20,894 nt of DNA from Candidatus Heimdallarchaeota archaeon (lineage in GTDB: Archaea > Asgardarchaeota > Heimdallarchaeia > Hodarchaeales > Hodarchaeaceae): the NCBI GenBank assembly GCA_048881705.1, contig JBHLSH010000043.1:1-20894 (forward strand). The letters run 5' to 3'. The position numbers and the translations under genes are program-made. Positions within the stretch are counted from its first letter, which is position 1. Every line of letters begins with the position of its first letter. This document shows positions 12,714 to 14,625 of the stretch, one piece after another. The notes beneath the pieces were generated by a model, which had not been told where the DNA came from, searched no databases, and saw only the letters and a program-made list of their open reading frames with translations.

Positions 12714-12776
12714 TTAAATATGAACGTCATCTGTACGAACATGAACCTAAGTTCATATGAACTTTCTCTAAAGTTT
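12714..12776 (+). promoter_or_regulatory. TATA box (TTAAATA) followed by an array of ATGAAC half-sites forming palindromes (putative operator)
   Basis: TTAAATA at 12714-12720; ATGAAC at 12720, 12741 and 12757; GTTCAT at 12751; near-match ACGAAC at 12735; perfect ATGAAC-CTAA-GTTCAT at 12741-12756; AACTTT-CTCT-AAAGTT at 12760-12775. Confidence 0.6.
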
Positions 12777-12799
12777 ACATTCTCATATGGTGAAAAATA

Positions 12800-14401
12800 G
12801 TGGCATCGTCTGTGTGGAAATCAATGACGTTTGAAGAGCGAATAGAAGTTGTTCGAGAACGCAGATCAAATGGCGAAACTTTTGCCATGATCGCGGAATC
12901 CTTGATTGGCAGTTCGAAAAACAAATCTACAATCTGGAGTTGGGCGCGGCGAAACATGGAGACCCACGACCTCTACCCAAAAATGGACAAGTTTCCAACC
13001 GAACCGTATTCGCGATTTACTGAGGTTGAACAATGGACTATATATGACATTATTACCGCACTGTTCCCACGCCTTGATGCCATAACTCAGCACTTGTTGA
13101 TCGAGATTGAACAGATTTCTAAGGAACAGAATCAGAAGTTTACTACAACGGCAGGATTCCTAGACCAGCTGGAGCAACGAGTGATCCAGGCGATCCAACA
13201 AAACATCATGGCCTCATCAGGAGTACAAATTCCTGCGAGTTCAATTCGGCCCACGCCCCCCATCCCTTCCCCGAGGCGAACTGTTCCTCCCCCCCCGCCT
13301 TCTACCTCTGCTTTACCATCAGCAATTCTACCTGATCACGAACTCCGCAATGATTTTGAGGAGATGACCCTGGAGGAAATCGCCGCTCTTCCACAGAGTT
13401 TTCTAGAGACATTAAATACTAGTGAACGGAATCGGCTCCAAGAACGGGTGAAAGAACTCAGAATGTTAAGTATAATGAGCTTGGAGGAGAGGACGGCATA
13501 TCTCCTAAAAAAACAGGAAGAACGGGAAAGAGTAGAGGCTACGGAGGGACTTGGGGCATCCTTATCAGAAATGTTAGCAGATTCGGGATCTCTCTTTGCG
13601 CGAATGCGTAGGGTTGCAGATGATTCGGGCGTCTCTGGGACAGGAACATTTGGAAAGTTCTTAACGGAGTTTAATTACTTCTATTGTTTCGCGTGTGGAA
13701 CCACCAATCGGGTAGAAGGCGATTCGGCCTCCACCTGCATATCCTGCCATTCTGGAGAAGAGTTACTGGTCAAAGACGAAGAAAAAAGTCAATTTAGATA
13801 CTGGGAGTGTTTATCAGAAAAAATTCTAGAACCTGTGGATTCCGAGTATACACGAGGCGCACCAATTTCGGTAAAGTCCAGATGGAAGACACTAATAGGA
13901 GAGACGGCGAAAACGGGGGCATGTAAAGACGGAGACGTCCGCGAAATTACTCCTTTTGTGCTAATCAAAGAAAACCCTGATCAACAATTCGCACATTATC
14001 TCACGTTGTTCCGCCTATATCTACAGCTTGGCCTGCCAAACGATCTCAAATCGGAACTTGAAACGCTATTGATCACAATTCAACAACTTCCTGATATTAC
14101 ATCGAAGGATCACACCTCTACCTTGGCAATCAAGATAATGACTATTCTCACAAACGTTTTGAATTGGTTACAATCAGAAAATATAATGAAATCCATCCCA
14201 GATAACCAGACCATCGGGATGCAGGTGAGAAATCTTCTTCAGGATATTGATATACTCCAAGATCCTGACTCCCCTCAAGAATTACCAAAAGCTAGTGAAA
14301 TAGGACAAATCACTGGGAAAGTTGATCAAATTCTCAATCGATTTACCCAAATTCTGGGTCAACTGGAAAGCATGTTGCTATTATCCCCACGTGTGTCCTA
14401 G
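12800..14401 (+). CDS. Uncharacterised multidomain protein: N-terminal HTH, proline-rich linker, charged helices, C4 zinc finger, helical C-terminus
   Basis: GTG start with GGTGA RBS at 12789-12793. HTH-like FEERIEVVRERRSNGETFAMIAESLIGSSKNKSTIWSWARR; RPTPPIPSPRRTVPPPPP; C296-x2-C299-x13-C313-x2-C316. Confidence 0.85.
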   Translation: MASSVWKSMTFEERIEVVRERRSNGETFAMIAESLIGSSKNKSTIWSWARRNMETHDLYPKMDKFPTEPYSRFTEVEQWTIYDIITALFPRLDAITQHLLIEIEQISKEQNQKFTTTAGFLDQLEQRVIQAIQQNIMASSGVQIPASSIRPTPPIPSPRRTVPPPPPSTSALPSAILPDHELRNDFEEMTLEEIAALPQSFLETLNTSERNRLQERVKELRMLSIMSLEERTAYLLKKQEERERVEATEGLGASLSEMLADSGSLFARMRRVADDSGVSGTGTFGKFLTEFNYFYCFACGTTNRVEGDSASTCISCHSGEELLVKDEEKSQFRYWECLSEKILEPVDSEYTRGAPISVKSRWKTLIGETAKTGACKDGDVREITPFVLIKENPDQQFAHYLTLFRLYLQLGLPNDLKSELETLLITIQQLPDITSKDHTSTLAIKIMTILTNVLNWLQSENIMKSIPDNQTIGMQVRNLLQDIDILQDPDSPQELPKASEIGQITGKVDQILNRFTQILGQLESMLLLSPRVS

Positions 14402-14625
14402 GCATAATCGTAAGCCCGTTTGCCTTTCAAATAAATTATCTCTCCCCTCTCTACTCCTGGCGGACGTTAGACCTCTCTCCAAGTGATGCCCGTTCAATAC
14501 CGTTGCAATGTTCTCCTATCAAAGGGTTTTTACATCCTGATTTCTCATTGAGGTAATCATCTGAGTTCTAGCCTTATCCCCTCTGCTGAGCTCAATAAGG
14601 ATAATTTTTTTCACAGTTGATTGAA

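Follow-up and report, generated by a model that had tools for sequence, protein, structure and literature searches.

Autoregulated helix-turn-helix (HTH) factors of the HTH_38 (PF13936), Sigma-70 region 4 (PF08281), and homeodomain-like types combine an N-terminal three-helix HTH, in which the recognition helix is conserved, with palindromic half-sites at their own promoter and possibly a dimerising helix after the HTH. In ParR/parC and TubR/tubC, a small DNA-binding head is combined with replicon-unique repeats at the gene's own promoter and a tail able to contact protein. The eukaryotic proline-rich actin regulators (formin FH1, Ena/VASP, and the vinculin linker and tail) have a homopolymeric proline run within a disordered linker and helical domains after it. 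Heimdall/Hodarchaeales-type Asgard archaea are currently placed nearest the eukaryotic stem, and their lineage-specific regulators are, to our knowledge, essentially unstudied.

In this work, we analyzed a window of 20,894 nt (i.e., the whole stretch of DNA) from such an archaeon, in which one gene encodes a 533-aa protein that is similar to each of these systems in the features listed above but also differs from all of them. Ordinary HTH_38, Sigma-70 region 4, and homeodomain-like regulators lack the ~400 extra conserved residues of this protein, and the half-sites upstream of the gene are overlapping 6-bp units, unlike those of autoregulated HTH factors. Compared with ParR/parC and TubR/tubC, the gene has no adjacent filament or NTPase gene, has few half-sites, and is a chromosomal core gene of its genus; the likeness to ParR and TubR is one of layout, with no relatedness of HTH type established. 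As for the actin regulators, no FH2, EVH1, EVH2, or WH2 was detected in the 533-aa protein, and there is no sequence homology. Our preferred explanation, which we regard as probable, is that this is a lineage-specific, sequence-specific DNA-binding protein that binds an ATGAAC array at its own promoter and controls its own transcription. The protein, with its unusual but conserved architecture, and the short, conserved, genome-unique DNA array form a well-defined pair that can be tested.

Distribution and domain architecture of the family

The reading frame is open throughout (Table 1). Translation probably begins at the GTG at 12800 because an invariant Trp6 is located upstream of Met9, the orthologues begin with MSNPxxxW, and a Shine-Dalgarno-like site precedes it. 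Comparison with the orthologue in the sister species (G070) gave a dN/dS of 0.12, which indicates purifying selection on the gene.

The first-pass annotation of this DNA described the protein as an orphan, which is wrong. The protein is a member of an undescribed family that is confined to one small Heimdall-type Asgard group. We found 56 homologues, most of them full-length and with 47-56% identity, all in Heimdall/Hodarchaeales-type MAGs as judged by the source names. The family is present in all 21 genomes of the window's genus, with one copy of the long form per genome, alongside one divergent short paralogue. A sister family has a partial copy, and the family is absent from the remaining ~375 Asgard genomes sampled. 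The conserved, lineage-restricted architecture that the annotation had named as supporting evidence was thus found. Its view that the architecture is unlike any named family also held, as the window protein has nothing significant in Pfam, PDB-sequence, or PDB-profile searches. No Pfam, PDB, or fold match accounts for the entire protein, and the ESM Atlas gave no usable match with either the window protein or an orthologue. No transposase, terminase, or ordinary regulator matched the protein over its full length, which would have spoken against a new family, and the orthologues retain the HTH as well as the Cys4 motif. Among 1.84 billion cluster representatives, no eukaryotic homologue was found. 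The annotation's comparison to a eukaryote-style adaptor in a protein-interaction network is not supported, its sole basis being the proline tract and generic helices.

Table 1. Features of the gene and its upstream region, in window coordinates.
Feature	Position	Strand	Basis or remark
TATA-like TTAAATA, abutting the first half-site	12714..12720	+	Read from sequence; putative promoter role
Operator-like half-site array	12720..12762	.	Conserved in orthologues; unique in genome
Shine-Dalgarno-like GGTGA	12789..12793	+	6 nt 5′ of GTG; read from sequence
CDS, 533 aa, likely GTG start	12800..14401	+	Member of genus-restricted Heimdall/Hodarchaeales-type family
Three-helix HTH, aa 9-55, recognition helix KSTIWSWARRN	12824..12964	+	AF2, conservation
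Long single helix, aa 75-138, putative coiled-coil/dimerisation element	13022..13213	+	AF2, alignment
Disordered proline-rich linker, aa 146-170	13235..13309	+	pLDDT < 50 for aa 139-183
Conserved acidic helical region, aa 185-276	13352..13627	+	Alignment, AF2; common to short paralogue family
Cys4 zinc ribbon (C296, C299, C313, C316), preceded by G-x-G-T-F-G-K-F	13673..13759	+	Conservation
Beta-rich subdomain, aa 321-397	13760..13990	+	AF2; no structural relative detected
C-terminal helical bundle, aa 398-528	13991..14383	+	AF2, pLDDT ~90

The HTH that had been proposed at aa ~9-52 is predicted by AF2 as three helices (11-23, 28-35, and 39-52; pLDDT ~90), and T44, I45, W46, S47, W48, A49, R51, and N52 are invariant in a 14-sequence alignment. 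Whole-model fold searches were dominated by the C-terminal bundle, and the HTH geometry was read from the AF2 secondary structure. Relatives of the protein have sub-threshold matches to HTH_38 and Sigma70_r4_2, as well as weak Myb-type matches, and every one of these family assignments is under the curated threshold. For HTH_38, matches at E ≤ 1 were found in 12 of the 50 orthologues (best E 0.034) and lower values in two distant relatives (P0065, E 0.0035; P0082, E 0.0017), and the genus-wide scan found one orthologue at 21.4 bits, under the Pfam gathering score of 27 bits. The window protein has no HTH_38 match at E ≤ 10. No second protein with this HTH type was found in the window's genome. 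The long helix after the HTH has an invariant motif (F114, T117-A118, F120-L121-D122, and L124-E125) and may function as a dimerisation element.

The proline-rich stretch, first placed at aa 150-167, was confirmed and extends over the entire linker, with a P5 run at 163-167. The run is P5 in the window copy and P7 in most orthologues, and all 14 aligned sequences share P164-166. The acidic, charged region expected at aa 185-275 is helical in the AF2 model, contains 20 D/E vs 13 K/R, and has the motif DFEEM..EI..LP..FLE.L....RNRLQ.RVKEL...M..EER..YL.

The four cysteines of the zinc ribbon, which had been recognized from the sequence, are invariant in 50 sequences, as are C337 and C375, and the G-x-G-T-F-G-K-F motif N-terminal to the ribbon is likewise invariant. 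AF2 predicts ribbon strands at 292-296 and 302-305. The ribbon appears to consist of two conserved CxxC knuckles on beta-hairpins and represents a putative metal site. Matches to the model of the ribbon domain are weak, namely, the archaeal MCM N-terminal domain (Z 4.0, rmsd 3.3 Å over 43 residues), rubrerythrin (Z 3.5), and RanBP2/NZF fingers (Z ~3). When aa 283-397 were used alone in the fold search, the first 45 residues matched generic zinc ribbons (Z ≤ 4) and no match was found beyond them, although this is no proof of a new fold. The Pfam family DUF7130 (PF23458) is matched by 49 of the 50 orthologues over G-x-G-T-F-G-K-F and CxxC...CxxC (best E 2e-11). Orthologue scores were 23-35 bits, and some narrowly passed the cut-off of 35 bits. 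DUF7130 has no match in the window protein or elsewhere in the window's genome, and its matches in other Asgard genomes are mostly limited to the generic ribbon half of the model and come from short ORFs or ~200-aa proteins. As DUF7130 has no known function, membership in it explains nothing, and neither DUF7130 nor proline-rich Hodarchaeales proteins turned up in our literature search. A second, C-terminal CxxC...CxxC ribbon of the family is absent in the window copy and the sister species, and no remnant of it was found 3′ of the window gene's stop.

The last ~130 aa are helical, as had been stated, and form a predicted bundle (aa 398-526, pLDDT ~90). Also consistent with the annotation is the lack of a TM segment (top 19-residue Kyte-Doolittle mean of 1.12). 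Whole-model fold searches gave only generic helical-bundle matches that are confined to aa 400-530. The top Foldseek matches of the bundle are the vinculin tail and the alpha-catenin ABD (E 0.15-0.7, with 0.15 for the vinculin tail; TM(target) ~0.5). In the VIA search, 3jbi_V (Z 8.6) and 7uuw_G (Z 8.1) were found amid many unrelated bundles with Z ≤ 9.6, and the helical noise of this search reaches Z ~13. A vinculin-tail relationship was not accepted because it is one of many matches and lies within this noise.

The half-site array and its genomic context

Five half-sites are located upstream of the gene, namely, ATGAAC (12720), ACGAAC (12735), ATGAAC (12741), GTTCAT (12751), and ATGAAC (12757). 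They form a 12-bp palindrome, GTTCATATGAAC, at 12751-12762 and a 16-bp palindrome, ATGAAC-N4-GTTCAT, at 12741-12756. Where the array lies with respect to the putative promoter is read from the sequence, in which the first half-site adjoins a TATA-like element; many orthologues also have an AT-rich stretch 5′ of the first half-site. The gene appears to have a specific operator at its own promoter.

The array is conserved across orthologues, which strengthens the first-pass interpretation of the protein as a DNA-binding regulator. At least two exact half-sites are present in 17 of the 19 orthologue upstream regions (~0.2 expected per 300 nt), and the aligned upstream consensus is tatGAACAa-N7-aAaGTTcATATGAACgTTcat. 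The half-site core GAAC is invariant, as is the recognition helix. In the 3.96-Mb genome of the window, the 12-mer GTTCATATGAAC has a single occurrence (0.4 expected), and the array is the only cluster of at least four half-sites within 60 bp (0.02 expected). Across the genus, the 18-mer GTTCATATGAACGTTCAT has 27 matches with up to two mismatches vs 6 for the reversed control, and it is located directly 5′ of the orthologue in 12 genomes. An RNA element was considered and rejected (no Rfam match; fold z-score of -1.06).

The array stays with the gene despite differing upstream neighbors and ~50% protein identity. In the window, the neighbors are a GMC oxidoreductase gene and unrelated genes, while the orthologues elsewhere are found near genes for a class II aminoacyl-tRNA synthetase (Asp/Asn/Lys type by Pfam), Ras/Arf GTPases, KaiC, and LplA. 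A conserved operon was rejected because the window is syntenic with G070 only and the other genomes have two different neighborhoods. This conservation of the array whatever the neighbors, together with its uniqueness in the genome, suggests an autoregulated DNA-binding protein.

Outside of this locus, the array was also found upstream of nadB in 3 of the 16 genomes (G065, G069, and G072) and in one intergenic region of G058. With so few genomes involved, nadB was rejected as a conserved regulon member, and no stable regulon explains a function. With the query used, nadB was not found in the window's genome.

Candidate functions of the protein and its array

According to the explanation that we prefer, the N-terminal HTH probably dimerises through the long helix after it, and the dimer would recognize the ATGAAC half-sites, which are arranged as overlapping palindromes, at its own promoter, such that the protein controls its own transcription. 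We infer that the array is bound by the 533-aa protein rather than by another factor. As the TATA-like element lies next to the array, repression would be the more likely mode of control. The tail, in which the disordered proline tract is followed by the acidic helices, the Cys4 ribbon and its beta subdomain, and the bundle, may be a conserved effector or sensor part. Its probable ligand is a partner protein or a metal/redox signal, through which it would modulate or exploit DNA binding. Several observations count against this explanation. A simple HTH dimer does not usually have half-sites that are adjacent at 6 bp, and an ordinary autorepressor needs far less than 533 aa with a polyproline tract and ~400 aa of additional conserved domains. 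The HTH family assignments are all sub-threshold, and the few arrays at nadB do not make up a stable regulon that would explain a function. If the protein is an autorepressor only, it would be a modest addition to what is known.

Any conserved factor could bind the array, and it may be the operator of a different regulator, in which case the HTH would have a different target (DNA, RNA, or protein) and the gene would be merely a regulated one. The copies at nadB and in the G058 intergenic region fit the motif of such a general regulator, and the pairing of the HTH with the array is drawn from sequence alone. However, the array is almost exclusive to the 533-aa gene and has its sole site in the window's genome there; such confinement to the gene's own upstream region is the usual signature of autoregulation. 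The HTH type is also unique in the window's genome, and we consider a different regulator to be somewhat unlikely. Autoregulation has likewise to be weighed against an origin from a mobile element, in which the N-terminus of an IS30-type transposase or a phage small terminase-like HTH was fused to unrelated sequence and persists as a remnant or domesticated protein. The best weak similarity of the HTH is to HTH_38, which is the HTH type at the N-terminus of IS30 transposases. Against this origin, Pfam found no DDE, integrase, or terminase domain, each genome has one long-form copy, alongside one divergent short paralogue, and the gene occurs in 21 of 21 species of the genus, evolves under purifying selection, and has a partly conserved chromosomal context. 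An IS30-type transposase is effectively refuted by the missing catalytic domain and the single-copy core status of the gene, and we find a mobile-element origin hardly credible.

A further alternative is that the protein is primarily an adaptor between DNA and a protein network rather than a transcription factor, with the HTH anchored at one or a few arrays and the proline tract and tail recruiting a cytoskeletal or other partner (e.g., profilin-actin) in the manner of ParR/parC, TubR/tubC, or a formin FH1-like recruiter. In favor of this, the array has no second copy in the genome and, like parC, is located at the gene's own promoter, an invariant proline run is present inside the disordered linker, and the best Foldseek matches of the bundle, weak as they are, are actin-binding domains. 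Moreover, in vitro binding of polyproline, in the 0.1-mM range, is reported for some Asgard profilins (PMC8410842), and that work leaves their natural ligands unnamed. This literature raises the question of whether Asgard proline-tract proteins engage profilin or other eukaryote-like partners. However, the gene has no neighbor that encodes a filament-forming or NTPase partner, the neighborhood is not conserved, the array has only 3-5 half-sites, and the second arrays at nadB in three genomes resemble a regulon. The bundle matches are also within helical noise (VIA Z ≤ 9.6 vs the ~13 needed), and no match to WH2 (PF02205) or another actin-binding family was found in the window protein (E ≤ 10) or four orthologues (E ≤ 1), although the HMMER filters used in the WH2 search drop weak matches to short motifs. 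Among proline-binding partner domains, the window's genome has one weak UEV-like match and no match to Pfam SH3_1, Profilin, or WW, with the control genomes equally silent for the latter two, whose negative results therefore carry no weight. We regard such an adaptor role as unlikely. In its most far-reaching form, the protein would be an Asgard invention that tethers the unique ATGAAC array to profilin-actin or another proline-binding partner as a primitive, centromere-like DNA-cytoskeleton adaptor, with the short paralogue and its winged-helix partner (described below) as a second such system. A tail that links DNA to the cytoskeleton would be important if true, and we consider this form to be very unlikely.

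A short paralogue and the winged-helix gene that precedes it

The short paralogue retains the proline/acidic/zinc module but lacks the HTH. The ATGAAC array is absent upstream of its operon. In 12 of 12 cases, the paralogue is preceded by a weak MarR-like winged-helix gene, and the resulting operon has its own conserved palindrome. This pairing, which we count in favor of the preferred explanation, suggests that the module has been repeatedly joined to a DNA-binding domain and a private operator.

The half-site array upstream of the gene

The array of ATGAAC/GTTCAT half-sites at 12720-12762, upstream of the gene encoding the 533-aa protein, is the most informative result of this analysis. An operator array had been mentioned in the first-pass annotation, and it is real, conserved, and specific, consistent with a predicted operator. 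Within 300 nt 5' of the gene, at least two exact half-sites were found in 17 of the 19 usable orthologue loci, many of which have four (chance expectation: ~0.2 exact half-sites per 300-nt upstream region). The orthologue upstream regions align to tatGAACAa-N7-aAaGTTcATATGAACgTTcat, and the array travels with the gene despite three different flanking-gene arrangements. Across the genus, an 18-mer allowing up to two mismatches had 27 matches vs 6 for the reversed control, and in 12 genomes it lies directly 5' of the orthologue. In the window's 3.96-Mb assembly, the single hexamers are about as frequent as chance predicts (1251 and 1211 observed vs 1257 expected); by contrast, GTTCATATGAAC occurs once, and the array is the only site with at least four half-sites per 60 bp (0.02 expected). 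An RNA element is not supported (no Rfam match; fold z-score -1.06). The extra palindrome directly 3' of the array has an imperfect copy in the sister species with a syntenic orthologue (G070) and is absent from the other orthologue promoters.

We favor, with some reserve, the reading that the product is a sequence-specific DNA-binding protein that recognizes the array and autoregulates, a way of working closest to that of autoregulated HTH factors. Binding at its own promoter would control its own transcription, probably by repression, given that the first half-site directly adjoins TTAAATA (12714-12720), a TATA-like element, and that the presence of a Shine-Dalgarno site implies that the leader is transcribed. 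Dimerization would probably involve the long helix, and the tail is a putative effector or sensor.

That the array is instead bound by another factor is a good deal less probable. Less probable again is a ParR/TubR-like role as an adaptor between DNA and a protein network, in which the proline tract might engage profilin-actin; the Pfam profilin model misses Asgard profilins and was silent in the control as well, and the examples named in a paper on polyproline and profilin are other proteins (PMC8410842). The remnant of a mobile element is effectively excluded, as the gene behaves as a single-copy core gene and lacks any catalytic domain.

Extra full copies of the same array (ATGAAC-N10-GTTCATATGAACGTTCAT) are located 100-180 nt 5' of nadB, which encodes L-aspartate oxidase, at L050 (G072:C194), L049 (G069:C259), and L060 (G065:C1), and are absent at the other 13 of the 16 nadB loci in the genus. 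Because only these three genomes have the array 5' of nadB, the element can be recruited to another promoter but does not define a stable regulon. No nadB was found in the window's genome with the query used. A rich half-site array (ATGAACAAAGTTCACATGTTCATATGAACTTTCAT) is also found in one genome between small unannotated ORFs (L045:2900-2960, G058:C93), in an intergenic region apart from that genome's own orthologue.

Gene and protein features

The frame at 12800-14401 (+) is uninterrupted over 533 codons. The start codon is likely the GTG at 12800, because orthologues open with MSNPxxxW, with the invariant Trp at residue 6 and thus before Met9, and because GGTGA, resembling a Shine-Dalgarno site, precedes the GTG by 6 nt. 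The dN/dS of 0.12 against the G070 orthologue indicates that the gene is under purifying selection. Every protein feature named in the first-pass annotation was recovered by alignment, predicted structure, composition, or hydropathy, and no TM segment was found in the protein (top 19-residue hydropathy mean = 1.12).

Features of the array and of the 533-aa protein
Feature	Position	Observation
Exact ATGAAC/GTTCAT half-sites	12720, 12741, 12751, 12757	Read from sequence
Variant half-site ACGAAC	12735	
Palindrome AACTTT-N4-AAAGTT	12760-12775	
N-terminal helices	aa 11-23, 28-35, 39-52	pLDDT ~90 (predicted model)
Recognition helix		T-I-W-S-W-A-x-R-N, invariant (orthologue alignment)
Long helix	aa 75-138	
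Disordered proline-rich stretch	aa 139-183	pLDDT <50; P5 run at 163-167
Acidic helical region	aa 185-276	20 acidic vs 13 basic residues
Helix L-Q-E-R-V-K-E-L-R	aa 213-221 (13436-13462)	Nearly invariant L-x-x-R-V-x-x-L-(K/R)
Region matching Sigma70_r4_2 in orthologues	aa 222-262 (13463-13585)	M-S-P-E-E-R-E-x-Y-L ... E-A-A-E-G-L-G-x-S-L-T-A-M
Cys4 ribbon	C296, C299, C313, C316	Invariant, n = 50 sequences
Further cysteines	C337 (13808-13810), C375 (13922-13924)	Invariant, 50/50 family members
Helical bundle	aa 398-526	Confident in predicted model

All six cysteines of the protein are invariant among the 50 family members, and C337 and C375, in the beta subdomain, are candidates for a redox pair or for an additional metal site. 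The nearly invariant helix at aa 213-221 bears a speculative resemblance to the MIM1 motif, which ESCRT-III tails use for MIT-domain binding.

A second, terminal ribbon (WKCSxCxNxFEVKDR..PExCxxCGKIITKL) is present in all orthologues but two, namely the window protein and the one from G070, a close relative with a syntenic locus, and explains the orthologues' weak HypA and Zn_ribbon_8 matches. These two proteins end just short of it (profile position 542/578), and nothing resembling the terminal ribbon is found in the 215-nt spacer 3' of the stop (14402-14616). The ribbon-less form is a shared, selected variant and not an assembly error, because G070 shares the same endpoint and no downstream remnant is detectable.

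Family distribution and fold comparisons

The protein had been described as an orphan, which does not hold: a word-indexed search returned 57 proteins, its own entry included, most of them full length (~570-590 aa) with 47-56% identity. Their source records label them as hypothetical proteins from Heimdallarchaeota, Hodarchaeales, and Hodarchaeota MAGs, B3_Heim among them, with a few looser labels. When 1.84 billion cluster representatives were scanned exhaustively with HMMER, there were only 28 matching clusters (longest up to 578 aa) and no recognizable relatives outside this Heimdallarchaeota/Hodarchaeales-type group. When a profile of 50 members was compared with 400 Asgard genomes, full-length copies were found in all 21 other species of the genus, a 298-aa truncated copy in one of the two sister-family genomes, and none in the remaining ~375, four of which have marginal matches (E 8e-6 to 1e-3) to the profile's C-terminal ribbon part only.

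For the window protein, neither Pfam nor the PDB (by sequence or profile) gave a match. Of 50 orthologues, 49 match DUF7130 over the first-ribbon region (best E 2e-11; some only just clear the 35-bit cut-off). DUF7130 is a family for which we know of no function and whose profile mostly picks up only generic ribbons elsewhere in Asgard genomes. Sub-threshold matches were obtained to HTH_38 (N-terminal, 12/50) and to Sigma70_r4_2 (39/50, best E 3e-5), and when four orthologues were inspected, the Sigma70_r4_2 match fell at aa ~225-275 and not at the N-terminus in three. The corresponding aa 222-262 could be a degenerate second HTH; this segment is a single long helix in the AF2 model.

The full-model fold search matched only helical bundles, at aa 400-530, with the vinculin tail and alpha-catenin ABD as the best Foldseek matches (E 0.15-0.7, TM ~0.5); VIA-align of the full model gave Z up to 9.6 to many unrelated bundles, which is under the tool's stated helical-fold noise. 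For aa 283-397 modelled alone (pLDDT 76), matches were confined to the first 45 residues and were to zinc ribbons or rubredoxin-like knuckles, namely those of the N-terminal domain of archaeal MCM (Z 4.0), of rubrerythrin (Z 3.5), and of RanBP2/NZF fingers (Z ~3); the beta subdomain (aa 328-397) had no structural match. As these tests were below threshold or inconclusive, the protein is not a demonstrable member of the HTH_38, Sigma70_r4, DUF7130, WH2, or vinculin-tail families. Its architecture and the proline/acidic/zinc module are undescribed, and no papers on DUF7130 or proline-rich proteins of Hodarchaeales were found.

A short paralogue with its own operon

A ~350-aa paralogue is present in every genome of the genus and has an equally narrow distribution. 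It shares aa ~110-320 (long-helix end, P7 tract, acidic helices, and ribbon) and lacks both the HTH and the C-terminal half. At all 12 loci, it lies 3-10 nt 3' of a ~235-aa gene with weak MarR-like winged-helix similarity. This operon has its own conserved upstream palindrome, TATAGAC(A/T)TG(T/C)CTATA (11/11 loci), and the ATGAAC array is absent from the upstream regions of these 11 loci. Distant relatives (P0084 and the copy in genome G079) have an HTH, a Pro-rich region, and helices, sometimes with a ribbon, and no bundle. Based on the short-paralogue operon and these relatives, the proline/acidic/zinc module is a unit that recurs in combination with a DNA-binding domain and a private palindrome. 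In the window's genome, the operon is found at C1:163414-165260 (L067:1498-3285, minus strand), with the winged-helix gene followed by a 358-aa short paralogue, and exact TAGACATGTCTA occurs only twice, at C1:165229 and C15:18408.
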